DNA from: Candidatus Saccharimonadales bacterium
GTDB lineage: Bacteria > Patescibacteriota > Saccharimonadia > Saccharimonadales > JBBQYC01
Assembly (NCBI GenBank): GCA_038209015.1
Contig: JBBQYC010000001.1
Span: 18,974-82,973, forward strand
DNA: 64,000 nt
Reading direction: 5' to 3'
Shown here: positions 3,231 through 56,927 of the stretch, one piece after another
Layout: every line of letters begins with the position of its first letter
Position numbering within the stretch: the stretch's first letter is position 1
The notes under the pieces: model-generated
The model's database searches: none
What the model saw: only the letters and a program-made list of their open reading frames with translations
What the model was told of the DNA's origin: nothing
Translations under genes and position numbers: made by a program

Positions 3231-3250
3231 GCAATTAAAAGGATATCTAT

Positions 3251-3673: not shown

Positions 3674-3745
3674 CGGATAGCTAAGAGTTGTCATCAGAGT
3701 TCTATCTGTGATATAACACCTATAAATCAATAAGAAAGGTTTTCA

Positions 3746-20867: not shown

Positions 20868-20875
20868 GAGTCGCT

Positions 20876-22150: not shown

Positions 22151-22196
22151 CAAAATACACATAAAAATGTTATAATCTTCCATAATAAGGAGTGTT

Positions 22197-23221: not shown

Positions 23222-23250
23222 TAGCAACAATGTGCTAATATACTATAGTT

Positions 23251-24033
23251 ATGTTACAAACAAAAATTGATAATCCCTACGAAACACTTGAACTCTTTAT
23301 TACAGATTTTCATGAAAGCCAGCACTCGCCAGACGTCACCGTAGAAGATAAAAGTCAGTTATTAAACACTATCGGTCGCTTTGGGCTGCAGCATGGCCTC
23401 CCGATTGATTACATCGCGCATCGATTAGAGATGCCTACGGATAGTTTGTTGCAAGAGCTTGAAGTTGATGAAGCGCTAAGCAAAGCCTTTCATAAGACGA
23501 CCACAGAGGGTTTGAATATGGGTGGTAGTCCTGAAAAAACCGATACTTCCGTCTATACGACTGATCCTGAAGCGCTTGGTTGGTTAAACGGTAAGCCTGC
23601 CGTGAAGTTGCCGGCAGTCCTTGTTGAAACCGAAGATCTAACCTACCGCTTGGTGGATTTAGTTGGTCTTCACCGCGTGCCGAAGAAGCTCAGGCAAAAA
23701 TTACTTGATCAGCATGAATACGAAAGTCTACATGAAAAACTAACTCATGAAGCGATTCCGAAGCTCTATAAGGATGTAAAGACACTTGATGGTAAGCTGC
23801 GTCCCGTTGCTATGGGCAATCGTACAAAAAAAGAAGCAGAAGCCGTTGCCAGTTTCAAATGTAAGCTTCCAGCTTACAAAGTTGATGCCCACGGTACAAA
23901 TAATAGGGCAATCATCGTGTTTTTAGGTAATAGTAGCGATAAGGAGCCGGTTCCTCAGTTTGGGCTTGCGGCGTTATATGATCATGATGACGATGAGGCA
24001 ATTCACTCAGCGTTATTTGCTAAGCAGAAATAA
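23251..24033 (+). CDS. hypothetical protein, 260 aa (operon gene 5 of 5)
   Basis: ORF 30 nt after gene 4. No recognisable domain. Confidence 0.5.
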   Translation: MLQTKIDNPYETLELFITDFHESQHSPDVTVEDKSQLLNTIGRFGLQHGLPIDYIAHRLEMPTDSLLQELEVDEALSKAFHKTTTEGLNMGGSPEKTDTSVYTTDPEALGWLNGKPAVKLPAVLVETEDLTYRLVDLVGLHRVPKKLRQKLLDQHEYESLHEKLTHEAIPKLYKDVKTLDGKLRPVAMGNRTKKEAEAVASFKCKLPAYKVDAHGTNNRAIIVFLGNSSDKEPVPQFGLAALYDHDDDEAIHSALFAKQK

Positions 24034-24034
24034 T

Positions 24035-24892
24035 CTAAATTGTTAGGGTGGTGCAGCGTATAAAGCCGCCGCCTTTTTGCAGCTCGACTACATCAGGGTG
24101 TATAAGCGTGTACCCATGGTTCTCAAGCTGCGCAGCAAGGAGCGGGGCATGTGAACTCATAATAACTGTTTCTGAGGTTGAAACGAGGTTGCAGGCCAGT
24201 CCTTGCATGGCCTCTTCAAGGGTGACTTCTATAGTATCTAACGCCAGGGCGCGGACTTTTTCCTGGCTTTCCTGCGTAAAAGCTTCCGGGCACCAAGCGA
24301 TTAAGTCATCTGAGATAATCGAAACCGCTAAGTCGATGTCATAGAAAAAGCTATCCGGCCAGTTGGTTACTTTGTTGATAACCGCTTTTCCAGTGGTATC
24401 AAGTTGCGGAATGGCCTGTAGACTAATTACTTCTAATCCCGTCTGTTCTGCTAAAAAGGGGTGTACTTCGGCATCGGTGCGGTAAGTACTACCGCACAGT
24501 AGATATGGCCCGCAGGGCAGTGCATCGCCTTGGCCGCTGAAGCGTAGATTGCCTGGTACCTGGACAATTTCTTTACCAAGAGTTCGCAATACGTCTTGAG
24601 CATACGACTGTTCTGCTTGCCGCGGACCTGGCAAGTTAGACATAATTGCCTTGTTCCCGACGCAGAGCGCCCAGTTGGCGGTATACACTCCGTCTTGGCA
24701 GTTATCAGGAGCGTCAACTTTATGTATTTCTACCCCTGCGCTACGAAGCGCAGCTTGTATGTTAGTGTGATCTGTTACGGCGCGATCAATATCGACTGCA
24801 ACTGATGCATCCATGTAGGCATTAATTGCGAAACCGTCATTAAAATATTCGGCTCCGCTCATCAATACACTACTGTTCATTTTTTGTGGCAT
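24035..24892 (-). CDS. pentein-fold amidinotransferase/DDAH/arginine-deiminase superfamily enzyme (short, 285 aa)
   Basis: C-terminal GGGFIRCTTL, the catalytic Cys motif of guanidino-group-modifying enzymes. Length is DDAH-like rather than ArcA-like. Confidence 0.6.
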   Translation of the reverse strand: MPQKMNSSVLMSGAEYFNDGFAINAYMDASVAVDIDRAVTDHTNIQAALRSAGVEIHKVDAPDNCQDGVYTANWALCVGNKAIMSNLPGPRQAEQSYAQDVLRTLGKEIVQVPGNLRFSGQGDALPCGPYLLCGSTYRTDAEVHPFLAEQTGLEVISLQAIPQLDTTGKAVINKVTNWPDSFFYDIDLAVSIISDDLIAWCPEAFTQESQEKVRALALDTIEVTLEEAMQGLACNLVSTSETVIMSSHAPLLAAQLENHGYTLIHPDVVELQKGGGFIRCTTLTI

Positions 24893-24937: not shown

Positions 24938-25516
24938 TTGTGGTATTTTATATCGACTATGGAGAAAGATCCGTTTCGGTGGGCTGCAAACGCACCCTTA
25001 CTACCGAAGAAATACTGTATTGCTGATTATTACCATGCGTCCAGCAAAGAGCATCGGTTGATTGTTGATGCACGGCAAGATTATAAAACAGATCAATACA
25101 CTCGGGCCAAGCTTGAGAACAAAGGAATGGTTCTGCGATTGGCAGGGGTACAGCATCCTTCAGGAAGTATGGAATACATAATTCCTGATGGGGTAACTTC
25201 ACTGGGGGCATTTTTAAATTCAACCTCTGCTGATCAAAACAGGGCCTGGAAACGACGCTACATGTTCAATCGTATAACTGAATTTCTGAGTGAATTCACT
25301 GCAATGGGACTCGGCCTCAGCGCAGAACCGTCTGCCAGCCGCCACAATATAGGCCAAAATCTGTTAAGCGATCCGGTATTGTTACCGGCGCTTCCAGTGA
25401 GCATAGAGGAGATGGATAATCACCAAGCTCATATTCAGAATCAAGCATTTTATGTGCAGATTCAGCAGGACATAATAGAGGTTGCGCCGCCCGACGAGCG
25501 TGATTTCCCCTTCTAG
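24938..25516 (+). CDS. hypothetical protein (192 aa), probably co-transcribed with the kinase-like gene
   Basis: ORF 9 nt upstream of 25525. Confidence 0.45.
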   Translation: MWYFISTMEKDPFRWAANAPLLPKKYCIADYYHASSKEHRLIVDARQDYKTDQYTRAKLENKGMVLRLAGVQHPSGSMEYIIPDGVTSLGAFLNSTSADQNRAWKRRYMFNRITEFLSEFTAMGLGLSAEPSASRHNIGQNLLSDPVLLPALPVSIEEMDNHQAHIQNQAFYVQIQQDIIEVAPPDERDFPF

Positions 25517-32213: not shown

Positions 32214-32696
32214 ATGAAGGAATCATTTCCATCAAACAAAAATTACGAATTACAACAAGCATATCTTAGGCAAAAACAAGCAGACATCAGTCAAAAGCTG
32301 TTTGAGGCTGGAGTAAGCCCACGTATCTTAGAGGTTCAAGAAGGCCATGGTGCTAAGATTGCTTCGCGTGGGCTGGATATGTTGAATGTACAATGTTTCC
32401 CAGTTAGAAAAAAACGCACGACTTCGTTAGGCGATGAACTCACCGTAATAAATTTATGCGTGAAACAAGAAGATACCGAACGATCCGCAGCTTCATACAA
32501 ATACATTCCTGTCGGTACGCTTGATCGTTCGGGAGTGATTATATATCCCTCCAAGGGAATAATCCCGGAAGATGCCGAAGCAGTCCTTATGGCAGGGCTC
32601 GATCTTGCGGCTGCCAGGGATTCAGGCGAACTACCGGATCTAGACTGGTCACTTCAATCTGTACGAAACCCAAACACTGCTATCAAGAAAGCCTAA
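32214..32696 (+). CDS. hypothetical protein (160 aa)
   Basis: ORF only. Confidence 0.4.
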   Translation: MKESFPSNKNYELQQAYLRQKQADISQKLFEAGVSPRILEVQEGHGAKIASRGLDMLNVQCFPVRKKRTTSLGDELTVINLCVKQEDTERSAASYKYIPVGTLDRSGVIIYPSKGIIPEDAEAVLMAGLDLAAARDSGELPDLDWSLQSVRNPNTAIKKA

Positions 32697-33214
32697 ATAG
32701 GCTGTTTTTTATACCCGATCTTGTAGCCGATGTATGAGATTGCCAGGTGTAATCCGAAGTACACTACAAAAATAGTTACAATCACCCACAGTGGAACAGA
32801 TACGACCAGGCTAACTGCTAGCAATCCTCCAATGATGTAATCTATTTGATCAAAAGGGAACCAGCTTGAGCCGGGGTTTATATTGAGCTGGCGCTTGACC
32901 ATGCTTTCCAGAGCGTCGCCGGCTAATGCGCCGAAACCAAGCAATCCACCAATGATATACAGCGGGGCGGGGCCAACCGCATTTGGCACAATCATCCCGA
33001 TTACTACCGCCGATAGCGCGCCTACAACCGTACCCATAATGAGGCCACGCCAGGTTTTATTGGCTCCAAACAGCGGTCTACCACGTAGTTTCAAGCCGAA
33101 GTCTATTGGCGTGTTCCACTGGTCTAGTAATGGTAAACGGCTGGCGAAAACTGGCGCCATATTGGCAAGGCCCGCTGGTAGAAAAAACAGTATTGCAGCT
33201 ATGTAATCGTTCAT
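32693..33214 (-). CDS. CTP-transferase family integral membrane protein (CdsA/CarS-like, short CarS-sized form)
   Basis: KTWRG and GDALESMVKRQ motifs and a C-terminal FPFDQIDYIIGG. 173 aa with 5 TM. Confidence 0.55.
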   Translation of the reverse strand: MNDYIAAILFFLPAGLANMAPVFASRLPLLDQWNTPIDFGLKLRGRPLFGANKTWRGLIMGTVVGALSAVVIGMIVPNAVGPAPLYIIGGLLGFGALAGDALESMVKRQLNINPGSSWFPFDQIDYIIGGLLAVSLVVSVPLWVIVTIFVVYFGLHLAISYIGYKIGYKKQPI

Positions 33215-33873
33215 TTTTTGAGCTTCTTTTTGAGCTTATTAAATTTTGGATAGAGCAGTGCTCGTGCGCTTGGGCGCATAGTAAATGGTATCCCAGCTGC
33301 TAACTGACTGACAAGATTTGTTTGGTCGATCGGTTTTAATACAGTGGTATAGGTACGACCTAGTCCCATAAACCCGTGCGCATCACTACTCGCGACCCCA
33401 GGTATTCTATTAAGCTTGGCATACACGGCCGCTTGCTGACTGCGGTTTTGTAAGAATGCACGGCCATTCACGACTTCAAAAATATCAATATCACTGATAC
33501 AAGCATCTAAATCTTTGGGGTGCAGCCCCTGGCGGACCGTTTCAAATGGGTGTGGAATATATACCAAACCACCCTGGCGTTTGATTGCATGAATGGTGGC
33601 TTTCAGCGACTGGTTGGGTGCTATAACCTCTGATAAAAATAGCCCGATTATCTCACCGGACTCAGTTAGGATTTCCTCGCCTACTATAACCTGGTGACCG
33701 AGGGCGTCCCGTAGATGCAGCGCAAAATCTATGCTGTTATGATCTGTTACTGCTACAAAATCAAGCAACTGCGAACTGAGCGCTTTACGATATTGGTCTA
33801 TAGTGATGCCGCCGTCAGGGCTGGCAGACGAATGCGTGTGCAAGTCAATCTTATACACTCGATAACCGCCCAA
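33211..33873 (-). CDS. PHP-domain metal-dependent phosphoesterase
   Basis: IDLHTHSSASPDG and VTDHN motifs. Confidence 0.7.
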   Translation of the reverse strand: MGGYRVYKIDLHTHSSASPDGGITIDQYRKALSSQLLDFVAVTDHNSIDFALHLRDALGHQVIVGEEILTESGEIIGLFLSEVIAPNQSLKATIHAIKRQGGLVYIPHPFETVRQGLHPKDLDACISDIDIFEVVNGRAFLQNRSQQAAVYAKLNRIPGVASSDAHGFMGLGRTYTTVLKPIDQTNLVSQLAAGIPFTMRPSARALLYPKFNKLKKKLKK

Positions 33874-34555
33874 GGATATTAGCTAGACGGGTTAGTATTG
33901 TGATTATGCCTAAGACCAGGATGATTGCTAATACATACGGTATCTGGCTGAATAAAAAGCCAACAACCAGCAAAAACATTCGTACTTCAAAGCCGAGAAC
34001 ACCGCCACGGAATGTTTTGTTTACCGGATGGGCAGTATCAGACTGAGTCGAGAGGACAGCTTCACCCCACGCATTTAGATAGCTAATGAGGATGGAAACA
34101 CCTACGCAAGCCAGTGCTAAAACCGCTAAGTAAGGACTATCTGTAAAATATATCGTCCACCAGCCAATGCCAACGTACAGCACAACTTCTTTTATGCGGT
34201 CGGTAAAAGAATCAAGAAACATACCGCTGGCACTTGTCGATTTCTGCAATCGTGCCAGTTCGCCGTCCAGCGTATCGAATAATCCAAAAATGATCAGTAA
34301 AATCCCTGAAACGAACAAGTAATCGCTGGCCACTAAATAGGCAATAGGGATATGAGCTGCCAGCCCCGCGAGGGTGATACTGGTCGGTGTTAGTGTACCG
34401 CGCGATAGCGAATTCAGAGCCTTTGCGAGTGTGTGCATAAGACTACGGACCACTGTTTTAATAGTCTGCATAGCCACATTATACGGTGTTATTGCTTTAT
34501 ATCGGAATGATGGGAAAACAGTTAGCAGCCCAAAGTGTTTAGTTTTATCGCACAT
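33851..34555 (-). CDS. CDP-alcohol phosphatidyltransferase family protein
   Basis: DTLDGELARLQKSTSASGMFLDSFTDRIKE matches D-G-x2-A-R-x8-G-x3-D-x3-D. Confidence 0.75.
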   Translation of the reverse strand: MCDKTKHFGLLTVFPSFRYKAITPYNVAMQTIKTVVRSLMHTLAKALNSLSRGTLTPTSITLAGLAAHIPIAYLVASDYLFVSGILLIIFGLFDTLDGELARLQKSTSASGMFLDSFTDRIKEVVLYVGIGWWTIYFTDSPYLAVLALACVGVSILISYLNAWGEAVLSTQSDTAHPVNKTFRGGVLGFEVRMFLLVVGFLFSQIPYVLAIILVLGIITILTRLANILGRLSSV

Positions 34556-43867: not shown

Positions 43868-44404
43868 ATGAGTGAAAAACTAAAGAACAAAATCATCGAT
43901 AGGTACCAAAAGAAGCGTACTGATAAAACTCGTGTTCACGATAAAGCATTAGCAGAAGACATGGCATACGCAGAAAAACCCTATCGTGACGCTGCGCTTG
44001 CTCAGAAAGAAATCGGTATGGCCGCAGTCGGGGAAGTGTGGTCCCGCTATCCGGACACTACAGGTACTGAGCGTGTGTCTGTTTCGGATGTTGCACAACG
44101 GACTGACCATAACGAGGACGACATAGCTCACGTCCTAACTAGGGGTAGTCGGAGTTTAGCACATGATTTGTATGTAAAAGCAGACAAGACTCACCCCTAT
44201 AGAAAGCTTAAAAAAGTACGTAACCAGGCCGCTGAAATCTTTTCAGTTGATCCTGATGATATGAGTATGAGTCAGGCGCAGCAAATCGGACACCATTTAG
44301 TAGATAAAGTCTCTCAAACAACCGTAGAATCAGGAATTAAAGCCGCAGAAATAGTCCAGCAGAGACAAGAACGAAGTGCCGAAAGCAGAGAAGAGAGGGT
44401 TTGA
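43868..44404 (+). CDS. hypothetical protein (178 aa)
   Basis: ORF. First of three overlapping genes. Confidence 0.5.
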   Translation: MSEKLKNKIIDRYQKKRTDKTRVHDKALAEDMAYAEKPYRDAALAQKEIGMAAVGEVWSRYPDTTGTERVSVSDVAQRTDHNEDDIAHVLTRGSRSLAHDLYVKADKTHPYRKLKKVRNQAAEIFSVDPDDMSMSQAQQIGHHLVDKVSQTTVESGIKAAEIVQQRQERSAESREERV

Positions 44405-44979
44405 AAATGAGTGAACAGTTAGTTACTAAATCGGAAAAGCAGAAGACCAATAAAGAAATTGCTCAGCAGATTGGTAGAATCACAGGTAAGTTAGTAGACC
44501 GCGCCCATAAGCTACCGGTTACCGAGTGGAATGGCAGCGATTTCCGTCAAGCCGAAGGGGCTGACGGCACCAAGATTACGTCGGTTAAACACGATCTTGC
44601 GCCTCGCACATTCGGCAAATCGACTGAACAGAAAATGTTATATATAGATGAGCTATTATCAGACAAAACCAGAAAAAAAACTTCTCTATCAACGACAGAA
44701 GAATTAGACGGTACGCACAGTATGTCCACTGTACGTAAATCTGAAGACTATGGAGACGTTACGCCACGAGTAGACGTATCGCGTCAAGTAACAGCGATGC
44801 CTGAGGCCGCTGAAAAAAATCAATTGCACAGTAGGCAGAGAGTTGAAATCAATAGCCAAGTTGTGAATGAAATAGATCAGATATCAACAAACAGCCCAGA
44901 ACATGTAGTTTCAGAGAGTGCCCAAATGTTGATGGAAGCCCGCAACCATATCGCTAAAGCAGAAGGACAGCAAAAATGA
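44401..44979 (+). CDS. hypothetical protein (192 aa)
   Basis: ATGA overlap. Confidence 0.5.
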   Translation: MKMSEQLVTKSEKQKTNKEIAQQIGRITGKLVDRAHKLPVTEWNGSDFRQAEGADGTKITSVKHDLAPRTFGKSTEQKMLYIDELLSDKTRKKTSLSTTEELDGTHSMSTVRKSEDYGDVTPRVDVSRQVTAMPEAAEKNQLHSRQRVEINSQVVNEIDQISTNSPEHVVSESAQMLMEARNHIAKAEGQQK

Positions 44980-45920
44980 GTAGGCATAACAACCATTCCC
45001 AGAATGAAGGCCCCATAACTCAAATAGCAGAGAAAATACCACACGCAGCGCTTGCGGCTGGAATTATTGCAACAGGATTAATGTCTCATGCAGATTCGCA
45101 TGAGACAGTGAATAAGTTTCAGGCGGAAGTCGAAGAAATAGCCGAGTCTGCTCTCAGTGAGTCACTGCGGGTTGTAGATAGTGCTGCACACAGCAAACTC
45201 TCCAATCACCAGATAGGGGAGCTTAGCGACAGGGGTCTGTTGATAGTAGACGGGGAAGACCTGCAAGATTTATCAGAAACTAAACATGCTGAGATGCTTT
45301 TTCTTCCAGGTGGTGGTAAATTCACCGGTACCATTGCAGGTACGGCGACGCTTGAAGAAGTTATCGCAGGTAATCACCGTGATGAATCTACTACTGGCAT
45401 TAAGTATGATAAAACAGCAGATAACAATGAACAGGATGCTACTGATCAACAGATAACACGCGATTTTGATTCAGTTATGGTTGTAGAATCAGACGACGGC
45501 GGACAGCTCGCGCTGATTGAAACCGGTTCTTCGACAGTGCAATTCATTGATGTCAACGAGCCTGCTTCTTGGAAGATTGGTGAAGATACGGTGGATGTGA
45601 TGCCACTTGCCCAAGTAAAAACACCGGGTATCAGTTTCGGTCCGCTGAATGACGTACTGTACCACTCTAGTATTGAGCGTGATACGCGCGTCCCAGACTT
45701 TGAAATATTCGATACAGATGAGAACGGCAAGACCGACATTGACCGACTATCCGCAGCAATCAAGGCAAATAGCGTACCCATAACGGGCATATTCGAACAG
45801 CCGAAAGGTACTATGATTGATGCCGAAGGCGCCAAACTCCCTACAGTGAAGCGATTTGTGCAGCTGAGCAGTACCGCAGAAACACCACAATACTTAGAAA
45901 TAAATACGCAAGTAACTTAG
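44976..45920 (+). CDS. hypothetical protein (314 aa), one predicted TM near the N-terminus
   Basis: ATGA overlap. IPHAALAAGIIATGLM hydrophobic segment. Confidence 0.5.
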   Translation: MSRHNNHSQNEGPITQIAEKIPHAALAAGIIATGLMSHADSHETVNKFQAEVEEIAESALSESLRVVDSAAHSKLSNHQIGELSDRGLLIVDGEDLQDLSETKHAEMLFLPGGGKFTGTIAGTATLEEVIAGNHRDESTTGIKYDKTADNNEQDATDQQITRDFDSVMVVESDDGGQLALIETGSSTVQFIDVNEPASWKIGEDTVDVMPLAQVKTPGISFGPLNDVLYHSSIERDTRVPDFEIFDTDENGKTDIDRLSAAIKANSVPITGIFEQPKGTMIDAEGAKLPTVKRFVQLSSTAETPQYLEINTQVT

Positions 45921-46035: not shown

Positions 46036-47790
46036 ATGGATGCGAAGGATGAGGTTAAACAGCGTTTGAGCATAGAAGACGTAATAGGCGAATACGTTCA
46101 GCTTAAGCGTGCCGGGCGTAATTTTAAGGGTTTGAGTCCGTTTGCAAACGAGAAAACACCGAGTTTTATTGTTAGTCCTGAGAAACAAATCTGGCATGAC
46201 TTCAGCACCAACCGTGGCGGCGATATATTTAGTTTTGTTATGCAGATGGAAGGGCTCGATTTTAAGGGCACACTTGAAATGCTAGCCCGCAAAGCTGGTG
46301 TTGAACTCGAACAATACCGGAGCGATACCAGCAACACACAGGTCAAAGAACGGCTGTATGCTGCGCTTGAACTTGCGACTAAGTTCTACCAAGTTCAATT
46401 CAAAAATAATAAAATAGCCCTGGATTATGTATTTAGGAATCGTCAATTCACCAAACAAGTTGTATTGGATTTTCGTCTAGGCTACGCTCCCAATACGGGT
46501 AATGCTCTCGGTAAGTTTTTAGTCGATAAAGGGTTTACGACCAAGGAATTGCAGCAAGCCGGTTTATTATCTCGGACTTCACGAGCCGGCGACATGTTCC
46601 GAAATCGTCTGATGGTGCCGCTCATGGACGGGCAGGGTCGCGTAATCGGATTTACGGCCCGTTTGCTGGCCGATGATCCGAATGCTCCGAAATACATCAA
46701 CACGCCGCAGACGATGTTATATGACAAAAGTCGGCACGTTTTTGGACTGCACCTCGCTAAAGAGTCGATGCGTAAAGAAAAATTCACCGTTGTTGTTGAG
46801 GGAAACTTAGATGTTATTGCGAGTCATCAGGTAGATGTAAAAAATGTCGTGGCCACCGCTGGTACGGCGATGACCGAACAACATCTGAAAACCGTCGGAC
46901 GGTTCGCGGATGACGTGCGACTAAGCTTTGATAGTGACAGCGCTGGCCTGGCGGCAACCGAACGGGCGATTCCTATAGCTAGTAAAGTCGGGGTCACCCT
47001 CAGTATCATTACCTTACCCGGCGCAAAAGACCCCGATGAACTAATCAAACAAGATGTTGGTGCCTGGAAAAAGGCATTAGAAAAGCGGCAGTACGCTATG
47101 GATTGGCTGATAAGTCATTATGCACATCAATTAGATTTAGACAGTGGGCAGGGAAAGCGGAGTTTTAGCGACGCAATGTTGCCGACATTACGCGAGCTAA
47201 GTGATCCGGTAGAACAGGACCACTACTTAACTGAAGTCGCCAAGCGCATGCAAGTTAGTCCAGCGGCTCTCAAGGATAAACTGCAAACTGATACACCTCA
47301 ACCAAAACTGAAAAAACGAACTCCATCAGATAACATGGTAAGCCAGCAGCAACTTGAACATGCCAAGGTCCAAGATCATTTTATGTCTATGATGCTGATG
47401 AGACCGCATCTGCGGCACATGATAGATATTGTCGATAGCTCAATGCTGCTGCAAGAACAAGCCCAGCAGTTGTTGGATTTTTTGATAGGTCATCCAGATT
47501 TTGAAGGTGATATGCGTCAGGTACCGGTGTTGCAAAGTATTAGTGACTATGTCAAAATACTGTCATTACAGTACGAGGCACTGTTTTCTAAGCTCGATGA
47601 AGTCGAAGGACGCTATGAAGCTCGCCGACTCAGAGCCCGCCTCATTGAACTATATGTAAAATCCAAAAAAGCACAGTTGGCCCAAGCATTGGACTCAGCT
47701 GATGATGAAACAGCCCAAAAACTCCTCACAAGAGTAAAAGAACTCGATCAATTACTAAAGGTTAGTCAAGGAAAGGACACCCATGCCTAA
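46036..47790 (+). CDS. dnaG: DNA primase
   Basis: CHC2 zinc finger region ([11 protein letters not shown]) and TOPRIM motifs (EGNLDV; DSDSAG). Confidence 0.9.
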
Positions 47791-48904
47791 GAAGAAAGCA
47801 GCGAAAGCTGTCGAAGCGGAAACGAAAGCAAACCCAGCAGATATTAAAGAGCAACTGCTAAAACGAGCAAAAAAAGACAAGAAAATATCTCAAAAAGATA
47901 TTCTCACCGCTCTGCCAGAAAACTCTGATAACGCGGAAGCGCTTGATGAGCTGTATACGGACCTAGCAGATTTGAATATTGACGTCGTTGAAGGCAAGGC
48001 CGGCAAAGATGACGGCTGGTCAAATGAAGACGACGATGAAGTTACCATAGACGAAAACACCTATCTTGATGATATTGCAGACGACTCGGTTCGTTTGTAC
48101 TTGCGTGAAATCGGTAAAATCCCACTACTGACAGCTGAAGAAGAATTGGCGCTGGCTCAAAAAGTTGTATCCGGCGACAAGCGCGCAAAAGACCAAATGG
48201 CAGAGGCTAATATGCGGCTGGTGGTAAGTATTGCAAAGCGTTACGTTGGACGTGGACTTGACCTGCTGGATTTGATTCAAGAGGGGAACACTGGCTTACT
48301 CCGCGCTGTTGAAAAGTTTGATCCGGATAAAGGATTTAAGTTCAGTACCTATGCAACATGGTGGATTCGCCAGGCTATCACGCGTGCGATTGCCGACCAA
48401 GCACGAACTATTCGTATCCCGGTGCACATGGTAGAAACAATCAACAAACTACTACGAACACAGCGCCGTCTGACTCAGGATCTCAACCGCGAACCAACCA
48501 ATGAAGAAATCGCAGCCGAAATGGAGATTGAAGTCGATAAAGTTGAACACATCATGAAGATTAAGCAAGATATTTCTAGTCTTGATGCCAGTGTTCGTGA
48601 TGACGAAGAAGATTCTGTATTGGCAGATTTCATCGAAGATGAAGATACAATTACGCCTGAAGAATCGGCGACTGGTCAGCTGCTAAAAGAACACGTCAAA
48701 GAAATGCTGAGCGCACTGACAGAACGTGAGCAAAAAATATTAAAGCTCCGTTTTGGTCTTGAGGACGGTAAAAGCCATACACTTGAAGAAGTCGGGCAGG
48801 AGTTCATGGTAACCCGCGAACGAATTCGTCAGATAGAAGCGAAAGCACTTGCTAAACTGCGCAAACACAAAGACAGCCGCAAACTCCACGACTATATTAA
48901 ATAA
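47783..48904 (+). CDS. rpoD: RNA polymerase sigma factor RpoD (primary sigma-70)
   Basis: Regions 1.2-4 ([16 protein letters not shown]; [18 protein letters not shown]; rpoD box). 8-nt overlap with dnaG. Confidence 0.9.
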
Positions 48905-48968: not shown

Positions 48969-50444
48969 ATGGCAGTGAGTAAAGACATCATTATTATTGG
49001 TGCCGGGTTTGGTGGATTAAGCGCAGCAGCGTATTTGGCGCGCGCCGGACATAATGTAACGGTGCTTGAGAAAAACGATCGCCCGGGTGGGCGAGCGATG
49101 GTATTTTCTGCGCGCGGTTACGTCTTTGATCAAGGTCCATCCTGGTACCTTATGCCGGATGTGTTTGATGAATTCTTCGCTGATTTTGAAAAAGTAACCA
49201 GCGACTACTATGAGCTAGAAACACTTGAGCCATCATATAAAGTCTTTGAGAAGGATGATTCCTACAATGTAACGACTGCACCGTCAGTATTTACATTATT
49301 CGAAAAACTAGAACCCGGTTCCACCAAGTCAATTACTCGATTACTGGAAAAAACCAAATCAGAGTACGATGCGGTAAGAGCCGGGCTACTGATAAACTCG
49401 CAATTGAGCCCTCTCAGTTTGTTAAGAGAACCAAAGGTTCGAAAACTTCTGAAAAACACCGAATTAGTTCGATCATATCATTCACGTATTTCTAAATATG
49501 CAAAAACCGACAAGCTCCAACATATTCTAGAATTTATGACGGTATTTTTAGGCGGGAGTCCCGGTAATGTTCCCGCAATGTATAGTTTGCTTACTCATGT
49601 CGATCTAGGTTTGGGTGTGAGGTATCCAGCCGGCGGTATCGGGAGTGTGGTATCGGCATTTGTTAGGCTTGTCCAAGAGCAGGGAGCACGTATCCGCTAC
49701 GAATCACCGGTTGCTCGCATTACGACTCATAACGGTAAAACAACCGGGGTTATATTGGAAAACGGCACAGAATTACCAGCTGATATAGTGGTCGCTAATG
49801 CAGATTACCATCATGTTGAAACAACTATGCTCGGTAGTAAAGATAGAACATACGATGAAACGTACTGGCGCAAAAAAACTGTTTCGCCATCAGGTCTTCT
49901 GATATATCTTGGCGTGAATAAAAAAATACCAAGTCTGCAGCATCACAATTTGTTTTTTGATACAGACTGGGACCATCACTTCAGAGAAGTATTCAATCGT
50001 AAAAAATGGTCGTCGGAACCATTATTTTATGTATGCATGCCATCCCGGAGTGATAAAACTGTCGCTCCAAAAGGGAAAGAAAACTTGTTTGTGTTGGCAC
50101 CTATGGCTAGTGGAGTCCAACCAACTCAGACCGAAATTGATACAACCGTCAAGAGCATTTTAAGGCGAATTGAACGGCATAGTGGTACAGTTTTTCAGGA
50201 TAAAATCGAGGTACAAGAAGTTCGAACACAAGCATACTTCGAGGAAGCATTTAATGCGTACCAAGGTAATGCATTTGGGCTTGCTCATACACTCAGTCAA
50301 TCGGGGCCATTACGGCCACGTATGAAAAGTAAAAAAGTAGCCGGACTGTACTATGTTGGCCAGTACACAAACCCAGGAACTGGAGTACCACTGGTTGTAC
50401 TGTCCGGCAAAGCTGTGAGTAATCTGATTCAAACTCATGAGTAA
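48969..50444 (+). CDS. crtN: phytoene/diapophytoene desaturase family FAD oxidoreductase (CrtI/CrtN-like)
   Basis: IIIGAGFGGLSAA...GGR dinucleotide motif. Pattern DQGPSWYLMPDVF as in CrtN/CrtI. Confidence 0.75.
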   Translation: MAVSKDIIIIGAGFGGLSAAAYLARAGHNVTVLEKNDRPGGRAMVFSARGYVFDQGPSWYLMPDVFDEFFADFEKVTSDYYELETLEPSYKVFEKDDSYNVTTAPSVFTLFEKLEPGSTKSITRLLEKTKSEYDAVRAGLLINSQLSPLSLLREPKVRKLLKNTELVRSYHSRISKYAKTDKLQHILEFMTVFLGGSPGNVPAMYSLLTHVDLGLGVRYPAGGIGSVVSAFVRLVQEQGARIRYESPVARITTHNGKTTGVILENGTELPADIVVANADYHHVETTMLGSKDRTYDETYWRKKTVSPSGLLIYLGVNKKIPSLQHHNLFFDTDWDHHFREVFNRKKWSSEPLFYVCMPSRSDKTVAPKGKENLFVLAPMASGVQPTQTEIDTTVKSILRRIERHSGTVFQDKIEVQEVRTQAYFEEAFNAYQGNAFGLAHTLSQSGPLRPRMKSKKVAGLYYVGQYTNPGTGVPLVVLSGKAVSNLIQTHE

Positions 50445-51285
50445 GCAGCTTGAAAAACAAATATTTCGCAACGGTAGTACAACGTACTACTGGAGCAGTG
50501 TATTTTTCCCAAAACAGGAGCGGTCTGATATTTTTCGTTTGTATAGTTTTGTTCGGGTTGCTGATGATTACGTAGATGCAATCCCGCAGCAAAAAGAACA
50601 GTTTAACGATCTGGTGCGGTTATGGCAAACGGTTTCAGCAGATACGACATATACACTTACGCCAAATGATGGTGACTCAATCGATTTGAGAGTGGTCAAA
50701 AATATAGTTTATTTGCAGCGCAATAAAGGCATTAAAAAAGAGTGGGTCGAGGCATTCATAAAAGCTATGCAATCCGATACTAAGCTGCATACATATAAAA
50801 CGATCGACGATTCACTGGCATATGTATATGGCTCTGCCGAGGTCATCGGTTTAATGATGTGCCAGGTTCTCGGTATTCCAAAGCAAGCTCACAAAGCAGC
50901 TATGATGCAGGGGAGGGCAATGCAGTGGATTAATTTTATTCGTGATATTGACGAAGACAATCGACTTGGCCGCCAGTATTTTCCGCAATTCAGTTTAAAT
51001 GAGCACGGCCTCGAAAATCTTACCTCACCTGATCAGGAAGAACGTATAAATACATTTATTCGCTCGGAAATTACACGCTACAGTGAATGGCAAGAGCGGG
51101 CTTACGAAGGCTACAGATATATCCCAAGACGTTACCAAATACCTATTGCGACAGCAGCCGATATGTACAACTGGACTGCGCATCAGATTAATAAAAATCC
51201 ATCAATCGTTTTTACTAAAAAACTTAAACCAAGTCGGTTTCGAGTCCTCATTACCGTCTTAAAACATAGTTTGCGAGCTATATAG
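50437..51285 (+). CDS. crtM: squalene/phytoene synthase family (CrtM/CrtB-like)
   Basis: YSFVRVADDYVD and IRDIDEDNRLGRQYFP Asp-rich motifs. 8-nt overlap with the desaturase. Confidence 0.75.
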   Translation: MSKQLEKQIFRNGSTTYYWSSVFFPKQERSDIFRLYSFVRVADDYVDAIPQQKEQFNDLVRLWQTVSADTTYTLTPNDGDSIDLRVVKNIVYLQRNKGIKKEWVEAFIKAMQSDTKLHTYKTIDDSLAYVYGSAEVIGLMMCQVLGIPKQAHKAAMMQGRAMQWINFIRDIDEDNRLGRQYFPQFSLNEHGLENLTSPDQEERINTFIRSEITRYSEWQERAYEGYRYIPRRYQIPIATAADMYNWTAHQINKNPSIVFTKKLKPSRFRVLITVLKHSLRAI

Positions 51286-51315
51286 CCGTTCGCTTATTTT
51301 CAGGTAGTCTACAGG

Positions 51316-51903
51316 TTACTTCTGTTCTATGTCGAGTTTTGCTAGCAATGTATCTAATGATCTCAAGAGTGTATCAACAGAACCATCATTAACGAATGTA
51401 TAATCAGCGAATGCAATCGGTCCGCCTTGCTCCAGGTTTTCAATCTGAGCAATATCGCGATTCATAATTTGTTCCGCCGAGGTGTATTTGCGGTGGCTAT
51501 CTACTCGATTTAAAATCCGTTGATATCGCTCTAAACGAGGTGCAGTAACGGCGATAAGCAGTAAATCGTCACCAATTTTGTTATGCAGATAGTTCCGCTC
51601 GCTCCAGCTATACAGGCCGTCGAACACAACCGTTGTGTGTCCCTCATTAAAATATTTATTTGCTTTTCGTAAAGCGTGTTTGGCAAGCACGGCTGTACCA
51701 TCTTGCTTGCGCATGTCTTCGCGAACAAAAGCTTCATCGGCAACGTTATCTAATCCGCGGCGTTGCACTTCTTCGTATACCATAGTCCCGAAATGGACCA
51801 CCGGAAGCTTATAGGCAGTTTCAATATGATTAGTACAGGTTCCTTTTCCTGAACCCGGCATCCCCACAAAAGCTATTATTCTATTCCTCTTCACGCAAGT
51901 CAT
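51316..51903 (-). CDS. P-loop nucleoside/nucleotide kinase-like protein
   Basis: Walker A GMPGSGKGT. Size ~195 aa. Confidence 0.5.
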   Translation of the reverse strand: MTCVKRNRIIAFVGMPGSGKGTCTNHIETAYKLPVVHFGTMVYEEVQRRGLDNVADEAFVREDMRKQDGTAVLAKHALRKANKYFNEGHTTVVFDGLYSWSERNYLHNKIGDDLLLIAVTAPRLERYQRILNRVDSHRKYTSAEQIMNRDIAQIENLEQGGPIAFADYTFVNDGSVDTLLRSLDTLLAKLDIEQK

Positions 51904-51963
51904 TGTAACGCGACTTCAAAAAAAGTGAGAACATTTGTAACCGGCGTATACTAGAAGCCACGT

Positions 51964-53073
51964 ATGACTAAAAAAATTGATACTGCAAACCCGGATATTG
52001 CCGTTTTTACGCGCAAACTTAACGAATTTAAACAGTTGATAGACGCTGATATTTCCACTTACAGCCGTCAGATTACTAAAAACACAAGAAAACAGTACGG
52101 CCCATATGCCCAGATTGAAATAGACGCATTCTTGAGTATTTTAGGACGCGGTGGTAAACGCATTCGCGGAGCACTCGTCATGCTGGGTTATGAGATGAGT
52201 GGTGGTACGAACAAAGCTATGATTATTGAAGCAGCTCGGGTGGTCGAAATGATTCATGCGTATATTCTAATCATTGATGATATCCAGGACCGTTCTAGGA
52301 TACGCCGCGGAGGTCCGGCTGCACATATGCTTTTGAGCGAATACCATAGTCAGCACAGCCTATCTAGTAATAGTGATCACTTTGGTATTTCTATTGCTAT
52401 GAACAGTGCACTTGCCGGAGCCCACGCTGCTCAAATGCTACTCACTAACTTGGACGTCGATCAGCAGCTGCGCCTGAATACAATAGCTATACTCAACCGA
52501 ACTATGCTGGTAACGGCACACGGACAGACCAATGACATCATGAACGAGGTGTTAGCAGAAGTGAGCCAAAAAGATATCGAAACAGTTTTAGAGTGGAAGA
52601 CTGCGCACTATACGTTTTTAAATCCACTGCACATGGGTATGGTGCTAGCTGGTGCGGATTGTGATGCTACTGATGCCATAAGCAACTATGCAATTCATGC
52701 CGGGAAAGCATTTCAAATTACCGACGATATCCTAGGTGTTTTTGGGAATGAATTTGAAAGTGGCAAATCACCACTGGATGATATACGCGAAGGCAAGCGT
52801 ACCGTGTTGACTGTCAATGCTCTTGAAAACACTGATGACGGGAATAAAAACTTTCTTATTCAAATGTTAGGGAACGACCATTTAACACGCGCTGAATTTG
52901 ACCGTTGCAAAGACATAATTATAGAAGCCGGGTCGCTCGATTATGCAAAGAAACGAGCCATACATCACATTAATCAGGCTGTTGAATCGCTGGATGGTGT
53001 GGACTATTGGTCAGAGGACGGATTGGCATTTTTACGCGGCTTAGCAGTATCACTGCTCAATCGTCATAGCTAG
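51964..53073 (+). CDS. polyprenyl diphosphate synthase (FPP/GGPP synthase family)
   Basis: First DDxxD (LIIDDIQD) and second (FQITDDILG) Asp-rich motifs. Confidence 0.8.
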   Translation: MTKKIDTANPDIAVFTRKLNEFKQLIDADISTYSRQITKNTRKQYGPYAQIEIDAFLSILGRGGKRIRGALVMLGYEMSGGTNKAMIIEAARVVEMIHAYILIIDDIQDRSRIRRGGPAAHMLLSEYHSQHSLSSNSDHFGISIAMNSALAGAHAAQMLLTNLDVDQQLRLNTIAILNRTMLVTAHGQTNDIMNEVLAEVSQKDIETVLEWKTAHYTFLNPLHMGMVLAGADCDATDAISNYAIHAGKAFQITDDILGVFGNEFESGKSPLDDIREGKRTVLTVNALENTDDGNKNFLIQMLGNDHLTRAEFDRCKDIIIEAGSLDYAKKRAIHHINQAVESLDGVDYWSEDGLAFLRGLAVSLLNRHS

Positions 53074-53094: not shown

Positions 53095-54255
53095 GTGTTT
53101 AACTTTGCGTTGATGAATAGAGATACGGAAATATTTGAACAGCTGCCCGACTTCGAGCGGGGTATTGAAATTGAACAACCGCCAGTTAAATCGGTAACTC
53201 TTGAAGAGGTGCAAACCTTGCTGCGCGAACGTCATAAGTTAGGCTCACGTCAGGGTCATATTCTGACATTAGAGCAAGAATGTACTCTCGCTCAAGCTAT
53301 AGAAAAAGGTTCGGCGGCATCTGAATGGCTAACTGATGAAACGATGGAGTTACCTGAAGAAGAGACTGAAGTGCTCCAAAAGTGGGTGAAAGCACGAGAA
53401 GAATCAGTCGCTGAATTCATTGCATCCAATCAAGGACTCGTGACCATGATAGCCAAGCGTTACATGAACCGAGGTTTACCGTTAGAAGATCTCATACAAG
53501 AAGGAAATATTGGCCTATTAACTGCGGTCGAGAAATACGACTGGAGGCGAGGGTTTCGTTTCAATACAATGGCGTTTTGGTGGATTCGCCAAGCAATTCC
53601 TAGAAAATTAACCCTTGCTGGCAATGTAAATATCCCACCCCGTGCAAATGATTTGAAACGCCAGGTAAAACGATTTATGGCTGATTATCCAACCAGCAGC
53701 CAGCAGGATGCCTATGAGTTTTTAGGTTTATCTGACTCTGACCAGGAATCTGTAGAGGCGGCTTTAGCAATGAGCAGTCTGGCATCACTGAACAAGCGAG
53801 TCGGTGATGACCTTTTCGGTAGTGAGCAGCAAGATTTTGTTGCAGACAGCAGTGCGTCAGTTGAACACATGGTGACTGATCTATACATGAATGATGAGAT
53901 TAATAGCTTACTCCATACTTTAGGCGAAAAACACAGGCAAGCGATTATTTTGCGTTTTGGTCTAGGAGAAGAACAAGGCAGAAGTTACGAGGCAGCGGCT
54001 GAAGTAATGGGGGTGGCGGCTAGCACGTTCAAGGGTATTGTAAACTCGGCACTGGATCAGCTCCAGGAAAAAGCCAAACAGGACCCTGATTTTACACCAG
54101 AAAAAAAGACAGAGCCGGTCTCGATGTACGAAATATCAGCCGATGAAGCTATGCGTATGGTACGTCAGTACAGTGAACTACTCGGATATTCTGCCCAGCA
54201 GATAGCTAGTATGCTGGATATCCCTCTGGAAGATGTTGAGAACTACTTAAGCTAA
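53095..54255 (+). CDS. sigma-70 family RNA polymerase sigma factor (second RpoD-like paralog)
   Basis: Region 2 (DLIQEGNIGLLTAVEKYD...FWWIRQAI) and region 4 HTH present. Confidence 0.75.
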   Translation: MFNFALMNRDTEIFEQLPDFERGIEIEQPPVKSVTLEEVQTLLRERHKLGSRQGHILTLEQECTLAQAIEKGSAASEWLTDETMELPEEETEVLQKWVKAREESVAEFIASNQGLVTMIAKRYMNRGLPLEDLIQEGNIGLLTAVEKYDWRRGFRFNTMAFWWIRQAIPRKLTLAGNVNIPPRANDLKRQVKRFMADYPTSSQQDAYEFLGLSDSDQESVEAALAMSSLASLNKRVGDDLFGSEQQDFVADSSASVEHMVTDLYMNDEINSLLHTLGEKHRQAIILRFGLGEEQGRSYEAAAEVMGVAASTFKGIVNSALDQLQEKAKQDPDFTPEKKTEPVSMYEISADEAMRMVRQYSELLGYSAQQIASMLDIPLEDVENYLS

Positions 54256-54287: not shown

Positions 54288-56927
54288 ATGGCAGTCGCGC
54301 GTAAAAAATTTGTAATTATCGACGGGAAATCGGTCTTTTACCGTGGGTACTACGCCATGCCCGGGTTGAGTACAAATGATGGCACGCCCACAGGAGGAGT
54401 TTATGGGTTTGCGGTTATGGCGCTCGAAGTCCTCAAGCGTCTCAAACCAGACTACGTCTGCGTTGCATGGGACAAGCCTAAAACGAATATTCGTAAACGG
54501 ACTGACTTATATCCAGAGTACAAGGCCGGTCGCAAATCACCACCGCAGGATTTTTATGATCAAATACCAATTCTTCACGAACTGCTAGATGCGTTCGGAT
54601 GGCCGCTGTATGAGCTTGACGACTATGAGGCCGACGACATCATGGCGACACTTGCCGATCAAGCCAAAGAGGAAGATATCGAAACAATGTTAATTACGAG
54701 CGATCTTGACGCTCTGCAGGCGGTAAATAGTCATACCCATGTTTACGCGCTTAAAAAAGGCTTGAGTAATATTGAATTATTTAAGCCAGAAAGTTTCAAA
54801 GAAAAGTATGGCTTAGAACCAAGTCAATTTCTAGATCTCAAGGCGCTCATGGGGGATAGCTCCGACAACATCCCGGGAGTTGCCGGAATTGGTAAAAAGG
54901 GTGCCACCGATTTACTTCAAGAATACGGCAGCCTGGATGCAATCTATGAAAACCTTGACCTGCTTAAAAATTCTGTGCGCAAAAAACTTGAAGACGGCCG
55001 CGACATGGCGTACTTGAGTAAACAATTAGCAACACTGTGGACTGACGCACCTATTAAACTCGATCTGAAGGCAGTTGACGGTAGTAAATGCGACCCGGTT
55101 AAGGTCAAGGAAGAGCTACAGAAGCTTGAATTTCGAACACTACTTCGTCAGTTGCCCGATGCGATGCAAATGAGCCAGGAGCAAGTTGAACAAAATAATA
55201 TTCAAGAATTCACGGTTTCAGAAACTGCCGCCCACGCAATTTCTAGCGACGCTGATCTAAAAAAGCTGGTTTCAAAAAAACCGACTGAACTCTATGTGTA
55301 TTCCCGGGCAGCAGGCACGTACGGCAATAAGCCGCTGGTGCTTCTCGTGAGTTTGGACGGCAAAAAAACCTATCATATTGATGTAACGAAGGTTTCGACG
55401 CCAGTTCTTAAAGAGCTATTTGCAGCCAAGCCGCAGCTGATTGGCTACGATATAAAATCTACACTCAAGGTACTTCTCGAACTTGGTATAGCCATGCCGC
55501 CAATTGGGCACGATGTCTTAATCGGTTCGTTCCTTATAAATAGCTTGCGGCGAGAAAAGACTTTGACTGAACTAGCGCAGGCAGACATAGGGTACCAAGG
55601 GGAGCTTGAAACCGTCGCCACAGATGAACTGATTGTAAAAGGCGCAGAAATAATTGAAGTTTTGCGAGCTCTTTATCTGCAACAGGCGACTGCTCTGGAA
55701 GAGCTTCCCAAGGTTCAGAAGCTGGCCGATGACATTGAGTGGCCAGTTATTCGAGTACTTGCTAGTATGGAGCACCGTGGTATCAAACTAGACACTGATT
55801 ACTTGGGTATGATGAGCGAACAATTGACTGATGCAGTTAGTGATCTAGAACAGCAAATTTACGGCTACGCAGACCAAGAATTCAATATCAGCAGCCCCAG
55901 CCAACTAGCTGAAATTTTATTCACCACGCTCAAGCTTCCAACCAATGGAATCAAAAAAGGTAAAACCGGGTACTCAACTGCCGCTTCAGAACTCGCAAAA
56001 TTACGGGGTGAACACGAAATTATTGATTTTATAAGTCAGTACCGGGAAGTTACGAAGCTGAAAAGCACTTACGTCGATACATTGCCGGAACTGGTAGATG
56101 ACAATTCACGCCTGCATACGACGTTTGCTTTAACAGTGGCGCAGACCGGCCGGCTCAGCAGCCATGATCCAAACCTGCAGAATATTCCTGTTCGCAGCGA
56201 GCTTGGCAAAAAAATTAGAACAGCATTTGTAGCAGGTGAGGGCAATGTATTTATTAGCGCAGATTATAGCCAGTTCGAACTCCGTTTGGCGGCGTACTTA
56301 TGTAATGACAAAGATTTGATAGATATGTTTAATCGGGATGTTGACGTACACGTTGCTACTGCTGCTGAGGTATATGAGCGCCGCCCTGAGGATATCACTA
56401 AGAATATGCGGCGTGATGCCAAGGTGGTAAATTTTGGGGTTATGTACGGACTGAGCTCGCACGGGCTAGTCCAGGCCACCGGTATGAGTTACGACCAAGC
56501 AACACACTTTATTAAGCGTTATTTTGAGGTCCGTCCCAAACTGCAGGGATATATTGATGAAATTAAAAAACAAGCCAAAGATGAGGGGTATGTAGAAACT
56601 ATTTTTGGTCGACGTCGCCCGACTCCAGATGTGCGCTCAAATGTATTTCCGATTCGCGAAGCCGCCTACCGGGCAGCCGTAAATATGCCGTTCCAGGGCA
56701 GTGCAGCCGATATTATGAAGCTTGCCATGGTGCAATTGCATGAGAAACTTCAGGGTACTGACTGTAATTTATTGCTGCAAATCCATGACAGCGTTATAGC
56801 TGAGTGTCCAGCCGGCCAAGCTGAAGTCTTCGCCACACTCATCAAAGAGACAATGGAGGGCGTTGTCAACTTACCAATCAAAATGACCGTAGACACCGAC
56901 ACAGGTAAAACTTGGGGTGAACTCTAG
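54288..56927 (+). CDS. polA: DNA polymerase I
   Basis: 5'-3' exonuclease N-terminus. Polymerase motifs A (DYSQFELR) and C (QIHDS) and O-helix region. Confidence 0.9.
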   Translation: MAVARKKFVIIDGKSVFYRGYYAMPGLSTNDGTPTGGVYGFAVMALEVLKRLKPDYVCVAWDKPKTNIRKRTDLYPEYKAGRKSPPQDFYDQIPILHELLDAFGWPLYELDDYEADDIMATLADQAKEEDIETMLITSDLDALQAVNSHTHVYALKKGLSNIELFKPESFKEKYGLEPSQFLDLKALMGDSSDNIPGVAGIGKKGATDLLQEYGSLDAIYENLDLLKNSVRKKLEDGRDMAYLSKQLATLWTDAPIKLDLKAVDGSKCDPVKVKEELQKLEFRTLLRQLPDAMQMSQEQVEQNNIQEFTVSETAAHAISSDADLKKLVSKKPTELYVYSRAAGTYGNKPLVLLVSLDGKKTYHIDVTKVSTPVLKELFAAKPQLIGYDIKSTLKVLLELGIAMPPIGHDVLIGSFLINSLRREKTLTELAQADIGYQGELETVATDELIVKGAEIIEVLRALYLQQATALEELPKVQKLADDIEWPVIRVLASMEHRGIKLDTDYLGMMSEQLTDAVSDLEQQIYGYADQEFNISSPSQLAEILFTTLKLPTNGIKKGKTGYSTAASELAKLRGEHEIIDFISQYREVTKLKSTYVDTLPELVDDNSRLHTTFALTVAQTGRLSSHDPNLQNIPVRSELGKKIRTAFVAGEGNVFISADYSQFELRLAAYLCNDKDLIDMFNRDVDVHVATAAEVYERRPEDITKNMRRDAKVVNFGVMYGLSSHGLVQATGMSYDQATHFIKRYFEVRPKLQGYIDEIKKQAKDEGYVETIFGRRRPTPDVRSNVFPIREAAYRAAVNMPFQGSAADIMKLAMVQLHEKLQGTDCNLLLQIHDSVIAECPAGQAEVFATLIKETMEGVVNLPIKMTVDTDTGKTWGEL

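Follow-up and report, generated by a model that had tools for sequence, protein, structure and literature searches.

A minimal, cyclase-less carotenoid gene module, probably of the C40 (lycopene) type, in a Saccharibacteria genome

Carotenoid gene clusters comparable with the one considered here have been described from several lineages. The bacterioruberin clusters of haloarchaea are composed of crtB-crtI/D-lyeJ-cruF, and their CrtID desaturase (NCBIfam model NF058655) combines the activities of a phytoene desaturase and of a 3,4-desaturase, as established by knockout and high-performance liquid chromatography for C0507/D1086 of Haloarcula japonica (PMC11946383). Other known systems include the crtE-crtB-crtI module (crtEXYIBZ of Pantoea ananatis, crtI-crtB of Bacteroidetes) and the C30 cluster crtOPQMN of staphylococci. 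Saccharibacteria also belong to this list: lyeJ, crtD, and cruF are on record for Patescibacteria/Saccharibacteria of Lake Baikal (PMC9948471), and crtB, crtE, crtYf, and ubiA for a Saccharimonas metagenome-assembled genome (MAG) from the built environment (PMC11484240). Databases already label homologs in Saccharimonadia as phytoene desaturase or phytoene synthase, and hundreds of homologs are found in Saccharibacteria. A locus of this kind was analyzed here in a 64,000-nt stretch of DNA (hereinafter, the window) from Candidatus Saccharimonadales bacterium (assembly GCA_038209015.1, contig JBBQYC010000001.1, positions 18,974–82,973 of the forward strand). A preliminary description of this DNA had called pigment genes in such an organism “unexpected”, which is an overstatement in view of the numerous homologs and the published capacity; what the window adds is a minimal variant of the gene set lacking a cyclase.

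The region probably represents an intact minimal C40 (lycopene-type) carotenoid module. It comprises crtI, encoding a desaturase of the CrtI family, and the crtB-like gene of a head-to-head synthase (SQS_PSY family), which overlap by exactly 8 nt (50437–50444); the gene of a short-chain trans-prenyl diphosphate synthase (hereinafter, pps) starts 679 bp past the stop of the head-to-head synthase gene, and a P-loop kinase-like gene lies between them on the opposite strand (Table 1). The set is flanked by two sigma-factor genes, with dnaG upstream of rpoD and polA downstream of the second sigma gene. The preliminary description had named the four open reading frames (ORFs), the 8-nt overlap, the sigma-factor neighbors, the divergent kinase-like gene, and a distance of ca. 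0.7 kb to the prenyl synthase, all of which were confirmed, as was the carotenoid-type character of the module, i.e., the combination of a head-to-head synthase and a CrtI-family desaturase beside a short-chain prenyl synthase. The overlap points to co-transcription and translational coupling of crtI and crtB; a promoter/terminator scan of the locus performed at chance level and has no bearing on the operon structure. The nearest relatives in the genome collection are MAGs of uncultured Candidatus Saccharibacteria, and the named homologs belong to Saccharimonadia/Saccharimonadales. Intactness was assessed from the alignment columns conserved in at least 95% of 119 homologs per enzyme: 99 of the 100 such columns are kept in the desaturase, 64 of 66 in the SQS_PSY synthase, and 108 of 111 in the prenyl synthase. 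Since nearly all highly conserved columns are kept, the three genes are, by this measure, intact rather than relics.

The desaturase passes the general NCBIfam model of its family (TIGR02734, crtI_fam) with 448 bits against a cutoff of 238 over residues 8–489, and its N-terminus displays the FAD-binding GxGxxG motif as GAGFGG (residues 11–16). Its best specific curated model is that of haloarchaeal CrtID, the bifunctional phytoene desaturase/3,4-desaturase, at 573 bits. On the same model, a Halarchaeum desaturase from a crtB-desaturase-prenyltransferase-cruF cluster reaches 754 bits and passes, and lower scores are obtained by staphylococcal CrtN (385), staphylococcal CrtP (314), and Pantoea CrtI (309). 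NCBIfam holds no CrtN- or CrtM-specific model, and such scores alone cannot separate CrtN/CrtM from CrtI/CrtB. The closest matches in PDB are 4REP (213 bits) and 4DGK (206 bits). Sequence identity amounts to 40% with the Halarchaeum and Bacteroidetes enzymes, 33% with Thermus CrtI, 28% with both CrtN and Pantoea CrtI, and 20% with HpnE. In neighbor-joining trees (numpy distances, 300 bootstraps; all trees below are of this type), the Saccharibacteria desaturases form a single clade (99%), which joins Halarchaeum, two Bacteroidetes CrtI, and a second metagenomic set, also at 99%; grouping with CrtN was recovered in 0% of the bootstraps. Within its clade, the desaturase of the window pairs with that of locus L005 (95%). 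It can hence be regarded as a near-member of the CrtID clade, i.e., of desaturases from C40/C50 pathways, and by analogy it may also carry out 3,4-desaturation.

The head-to-head synthase matches PF00494 over residues 11–269 of 282, with the Asp-rich motifs DDYVD (43–47) and DIDED (170–174) in register with those of the references. Together with its metagenomic relatives (labeled Saccharibacteria+grpB), it forms a clade with 100% support, sister to CrtB of Bacteroidetes (83%); grouping with CrtM was seen in 0.3% of the bootstraps, with HpnD in 0.3%, and with HpnC in 0%. A further clue comes from the size gate of CrtM, Phe26, whose replacement (F26A, F26S, or F26L) lets this enzyme make C40 phytoene (PMC13304436, PMC4510654); a small residue there leaves room in the pocket for C20 substrates. 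In the alignment, Ser21 of the window synthase falls into this column, which holds Phe in both C30 synthases compared (Staphylococcus warneri CrtM and the Niallia enzyme), Ser in Pantoea CrtB, and Ala, Thr, or Ile in the other CrtB references, Ile being that of the two Bacteroidetes CrtB and Ser, Ala, or Thr those of the remaining four (Pantoea included). All the compared sequences of the Saccharibacteria clade but one possess Ser; the exception, L018, has Ala. Two more size-gate positions of CrtM, F233 and W38, were dropped from consideration, as the alignment is unreliable there and S. warneri CrtM itself has Ile at 233. The enzyme is therefore predicted to be a CrtB-like phytoene synthase from a divergent clade sister to Bacteroidetes CrtB.

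The comparison of the genomic context drew on precomputed Pfam annotation for related contigs, on 80 loci from metagenomes that the synthase alignment had retrieved, and on custom hidden Markov models (HMMs). The rpoD-polA stretch turned out to be a hot spot in Saccharibacteria with a graded gene content, and the dnaG-rpoD synteny recurs in L005, L006, L009, L010, and L099–L101. Only the kinase gene and pps are present at L100; SQS_PSY is added, with no desaturase nearby, at L012–L016, L018, L026, L099, and L101. In L001/6, L005, L007, L009, L017, L019, L021, and L022, a PF18916 lycopene cyclase gene comes after crtI-crtB, and L010 possesses, in addition to crtI, crtB, and the cyclase, a CrtD-like desaturase and a CruF-like gene. 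In total, nine related crtI-crtB loci possess a cyclase. In L005 and L007, the nearest relatives, the order is crtI-crtB-cyclase-kinase-pps with the kinase gene reversed; the order in the window is identical minus the cyclase. The window is the sole crtI+crtB locus without a cyclase among the loci that could be assessed.

No lycopene cyclase was found anywhere in the 64-kb window by tblastn, custom HMM, or Pfam; its usual place is taken by 30 bp. The junction between crtB and the kinase gene is matched in three Logan assemblies from different sequencing runs at 99.7–99.96% identity, and since three assemblies reproduce it, it is not an assembly artefact. The simplest view is that the cyclase was lost, which seems favored because cyclases occur in both arrangement types. 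Pfam scans of essentially all the window ORFs of at least 120 aa detected no UbiA, CruF, or further carotenoid genes.

Set against the known systems, the module shares with the haloarchaeal clusters a desaturase gene that adjoins and overlaps the SQS_PSY gene, but the order is crtI-crtB and not crtB-crtI, and the window synthase, 29% identical to Halarchaeum CrtB, is not its sister (0.3%). Unlike the haloarchaeal clusters, the window lacks lyeJ (UbiA) and cruF, and elongation to C50 is therefore not anticipated. With the crtE-crtB-crtI module it has in common the three enzyme families and the crtI-crtB order of overlapping or abutting genes; it differs from that of Pantoea in the low identity of the enzymes (21–28%) and in the absence of crtY, crtZ, and crtX. 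The other Saccharibacteria clusters (L001–L022; PMC9948471; PMC11484240) feature orthologs of 45–64% identity, the rpoD-polA hot spot, and the kinase-prenyl synthase backbone; some of them also carry CrtD/CruF or a UbiA elongase. In C40/C50 pathways, tailoring is carried out by cyclases, CruF, CrtD, and lycopene elongases. The C40 route is preferred because of the placement of the desaturase, the placement of the synthase, Ser at the F26 gate, and the presence of cyclase, CrtD, CruF, and UbiA genes in the orthologous clusters.

The other two genes, those of the prenyl synthase and the kinase, have a different standing. The preliminary description had counted both into the cluster, but they are not specific parts of it: the pair is found at L100, a locus without any crt genes, and since the two genes are kept even there, they are backbone genes. 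The prenyl synthase would be the source of substrate on which the carotenoid module draws, and it presumably supplies farnesyl diphosphate (FPP) for undecaprenyl phosphate. Its homologs are 60–70% identical across Saccharimonadales, i.e., better conserved than the crt enzymes. It was earlier said to have both DDxxD motifs; the first is there (DDIQD, residues 105–109), and the second reads DDILG (254–258), so that there is a single literal DDxxD. DDILG is, however, a normal variant of the subfamily, the solved structures of a geranylgeranyl diphosphate (GGPP) synthase (3LK5) and an FPP synthase (8F8F) both having DDLLG at this place. The region of the first motif, HAYILIIDDIQD, shows Tyr at −5, Ile at −4, and DDxxD without an insertion. 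A DDxxD without insertion, an aromatic residue at −5, and a non-aromatic one at −4 constitute the classical pattern of type-I GGPP synthases, which the window enzyme displays. It hence resembles a type-I housekeeping enzyme and not the dedicated type-II CrtE of the Pantoea module, as Pantoea and Paracoccus CrtE have DDxxxxD at the first Asp-rich motif. The top NCBIfam matches, the encapsulin-cargo polyprenyl transferase (182 bits) and GGPP_syn (156; cutoff 500), are all under cutoff, 3LK5 matches at 123 bits, and homologs are labeled “GGPP synthase type I” by JGI.

As for the kinase, the profile of its orthologs matches PDB 3LW7/3H0K at 74–75 bits, and adenylate kinases weakly. It falls into an NMP-kinase-fold group akin to archaeal UPF0200/AdkA-like proteins and is probably a nucleotide-kinase-like member of the backbone that takes no part in the pathway; an isoprenoid role was considered and dropped, the similarity being only UPF0200/AdkA-like along with weak resemblance to nucleoside monophosphate (NMP) kinases. 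The kinase slot beside pps is occupied by two P-loop subfamilies with 22–24% identity between them (the window versus L006 8272–8853, L009 8272–8832, L099 7343–7966, and L101 7347–7919), one of which runs divergently from pps (the arrangement of the window) and the other in the direction of pps. In L010, the slot holds a cytidylate-kinase-type protein.

The crt genes are embedded in a conserved housekeeping stretch of the order dnaG-rpoD-(crt)-kinase-prenyl synthase-sigma-polA. From the family membership, the motifs, and the context, we infer the following substrates and products. The prenyl synthase would elongate dimethylallyl diphosphate with isopentenyl diphosphate (IPP) to GGPP while also having to yield FPP for undecaprenyl phosphate. 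The CrtB-like enzyme would then couple two GGPP head-to-head into phytoene, and the desaturase, judging by the closest characterized enzymes, would form red lycopene by introducing four double bonds, possibly proceeding onward to 3,4-didehydrolycopene if it has the activity of its haloarchaeal relatives. Since the cyclase of the nine related clusters is missing from the window, the pathway is predicted to end with acyclic lycopene, unless a cyclase is encoded elsewhere in the genome.

Several observations weigh against this assignment. The desaturase stays under the cutoff of the CrtID model (573 vs. 640 bits), and the synthase falls far short of all the curated CrtB cutoffs (NF045921, 97.6 vs. 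500; NF042419, 86 vs. 480; NF045686, 79 vs. 550 bits), with an identity of only 17–29% to any reference. The trees are distance-based and include few references, and they place the CrtID-type clade next to CrtN/CrtP as its sister (80%) and not next to proteobacterial CrtI. Neither an enzyme of the methylerythritol phosphate (MEP) or mevalonate pathway nor idi (IPP isomerase), a cyclase, or a rhodopsin was detected within the 64-kb window. A survey of freshwater bacteria of the candidate phyla radiation (CPR) found the C5 pathway in Gracilibacteria only, other classes, Saccharimonadia included, having the C10–C20 steps only (PMC9166423). The flux through the module therefore depends on some precursor source, a point rightly raised in the preliminary description. 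Finally, Tyr at −5 of the prenyl synthase is nearer to Trp of FPP synthase 8F8F than to Cys of GGPP synthase 3LK5 and Streptomyces CrtE. Its product could be C15 or C20, and an enzyme making FPP only would mean a C30 pathway.

Such a C30 pathway, in which SQS_PSY would convert FPP into dehydrosqualene (4,4′-diapophytoene) and a CrtN-like desaturation would lead to a yellow-orange pigment, is quite improbable here, and it is retained mainly because the sequence cannot decide between the C15 and C20 products. It would accord with the aromatic residue at −5, with the demand of undecaprenyl phosphate synthesis for FPP, which the sole backbone trans-prenyl synthase has to cover (L100 possesses this enzyme but no crt genes), with the kinship of the CrtID-type clade and CrtN/CrtP, and with the lack of a cyclase, as in natural C30 clusters. 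The staphylococcal cluster is indeed similar in its SQS_PSY and CrtI families encoded by an adjacent pair. However, neither enzyme of the window groups with its staphylococcal counterpart (0–0.3%), identity being 22% to CrtM and 28% to CrtN, the latter against 40% to the Halarchaeum and Bacteroidetes desaturases; Ser replaces the Phe of the gate; the order is crtI-crtB and not crtM-crtN; and neither a crtM/crtP/crtQ/crtO neighborhood nor tailoring genes of the crtP/crtQ/crtO type were found in the window. Moreover, the orthologs adjoin lycopene cyclases and C50-type elongase genes, and the uninterrupted DDxxD with an aromatic residue only at −5 follows the type-I GGPP synthase pattern, in agreement with the JGI label. 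The “C30-type” label of the preliminary description is hence not upheld: CrtN gets 0%, the CrtID-type clade 99%, the gate residue is Ser, and the orthologous clusters carry C40/C50 tailoring genes.

There is also a slight chance that no colored pigment is formed in vivo. The module would then be a precursor-starved, decaying remnant with the cyclase already lost, or else SQS_PSY and the prenyl synthase would serve a non-pigment role, e.g., the formation of a colorless membrane hydrocarbon, with crtI as a dispensable add-on. Gain and loss are frequent at this site, as many pps-SQS_PSY loci lack a nearby desaturase, L002 has crtI without crtB, and L100 has neither; the cyclase and the precursor genes are likewise missing from the window, in an organism from a class reportedly without C5 synthesis (PMC9166423). 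Against this speak the three full-length enzymes with nearly all of the family-conserved residues, the crtI/crtB overlap shared with the relatives, and the recurrence of the sequence at more than 99.7% identity in three samples; moreover, the cells must obtain IPP from somewhere in any case, as undecaprenyl phosphate requires it.

A squalene/hopanoid route via HpnC/HpnD/HpnE-like enzymes (presqualene diphosphate or squalene, with an HpnE-like hydroxysqualene dehydroxylase) is effectively refuted: HpnD is nominally the top NCBIfam match of the synthase, but its 118 bits compare with a cutoff of 278.6 (HpnC, 85 vs. 250), and this model is a generic runner-up also for CrtM (161), Pantoea CrtB (174), and Halarchaeum CrtB (182 bits); HpnE matches only the N-terminal Rossmann segment of the desaturase (53 vs. 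283 bits; identity 20%), a single SQS_PSY gene is present in the window where both HpnC and HpnD are required, there is no shc, and the phylogenetic comparison with HpnD/HpnE proposed in the preliminary description revealed no grouping (at most 0.3% of the bootstraps with HpnC or HpnD) and catalytic motifs in place.

Table 1. Features of the carotenoid locus and its flanks (positions refer to the 64,000-nt window).
Feature	Position	Strand	Evidence and remarks
rpoD, primary sigma factor, left edge of the insertion hot spot	47783–48904	+	RpoD_Cterm 365 bits (cutoff 354), all Sigma70 regions
crtI, CrtI-family FAD-dependent phytoene desaturase	48969–50444	+	491 aa; Pfam Amino_oxidase 117 bits, NCBIfam crtI_fam
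crtB-like SQS_PSY head-to-head prenyl diphosphate synthase, predicted phytoene synthase	50437–51285	+	282 aa; Pfam SQS_PSY 160 bits
Junction from crtB stop to kinase stop, 30 bp	51286–51315		PF18916 lycopene cyclase gene occupies this spot in relatives
P-loop NMP-kinase-fold protein, UPF0200/AdkA-like	51316–51903	−	195 aa; Pfam AAA_17/AAA_18
Short-chain trans-prenyl diphosphate synthase, type-I GGPP/FPP synthase-like	51964–53073	+	369 aa; polyprenyl_synt (PF00348) 175 bits
Second sigma-70-family gene, right edge	53095–54255	+	Sigma70_r2 and r4 matches; RpoD-type NCBIfam scores all far under cutoff
polA	54288–56927		Downstream of the second sigma gene

Further variation was observed at the hot spot and in other crt loci. 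At the desaturase-less loci, pps is directly followed by SQS_PSY of the same clade (e.g., at 9130–10119 in L099 and 9110–9976 in L101; so also in L012, L013, L014, L015, L016, L018, and L026), with no desaturase or cyclase within several kb, as in the order dnaG-rpoD-kinase-pps-SQS_PSY-polA; phytoene, a squalene-like hydrocarbon, or another compound are the candidate products. In L002 (8211–13321), kinase-pps-crtI is followed by unrelated ORFs with no SQS_PSY in the next 1.9 kb, which again points to genes being gained and lost piecemeal at this site. In L010 (10001–15031), the CrtD-like desaturase and the CruF-like gene (PF04240) sit between crtI and crtB. The unannotated genes inside the clusters of relatives, checked as missing steps (e.g., carotene cleavage), had no family matches. 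The protein of the second sigma-70 gene possesses an additional C-terminal helix-turn-helix segment past region 4 (residues ~350–386, weak matches to Sigma70_r4_2/HTH_23), and one to three extra sigma paralogs occur near the same site in relatives (L006, L099).

A different genomic site is occupied in L008 (10001–12936), an 832-kb Saccharibacteria-like contig, by crtI, two cyclase-like (CrtYe/Yf-like) genes of ~100 aa, and a UbiA prenyltransferase gene, mirroring the order crtI-crtYe-crtYf-crtEb of actinobacterial C50 clusters. Actinobacteria are known hosts of Saccharibacteria, and a transfer of the crt genes of L008 and L010 from such hosts is conceivable. A second large metagenomic set (L029–L090, e.g., L033, L040, L053, and L062) shares the divergent synthase clade, with 44–46% identity to the window, and possesses CrtID-type desaturases. 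In these loci, the dnaG/rpoD/polA synteny is missing, the cyclase is located up- or downstream, and crtB is followed by cruF or UbiA genes.

Elsewhere in the window, genes of a CarS-like protein (PF01864, CDP-archaeol synthase family, 93 bits), a PHP-domain protein, and a CDP-alcohol phosphatidyltransferase are adjacent on the minus strand (32693–34555), possibly representing a gene set for the activation of lipid head groups, although the organism is regarded as a lipid scavenger. Five successive small genes at 1464–4162 each encode a C-terminal T4SS_pilin domain (PF18895), i.e., they are tandem paralogs resembling type IV secretion pilins. Co-directional ORFs of 127–424 aa without a Pfam match were located at 20085–24033 (five consecutive), 24938–25516 (one, past a minus-strand gene with a Pfam match at 24035–24892), and 43868–45920 (three).

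The graded series at one conserved locus, from no crt genes via the synthase, the desaturase, and the cyclase to the tailoring enzymes, is useful for two questions pertaining to CPR bacteria, namely, the origin of their isoprenoid C5 units and whether some Saccharibacteria are able to form the carotene precursors of the retinal required by their rhodopsins. In the rhodopsin study of Jaffe et al., blh was sought in Saccharibacteria and none was found, and crt genes were searched for in candidate actinobacterial hosts (PMC9296517). Lacking both a cyclase and a rhodopsin, the window settles neither question. A less conventional and rather unlikely scenario would treat the SQS_PSY clade and the backbone prenyl synthase as an older desaturase-free system making a colorless C30/C40 membrane hydrocarbon from host-derived C5 units or prenyl diphosphates; crtI, the cyclase, CrtD/CruF, and the elongase would be modular add-ons at the rpoD-polA hot spot, with the window arrested at lycopene. 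If true, this would mean a pigment made by an episymbiont reliant on its host for the precursors. Overall, with the pathway type corrected to C40 as the probable one, the locus provides a well-resolved example of ultra-small, metabolically reduced Saccharibacteria keeping intact carotenoid genes.

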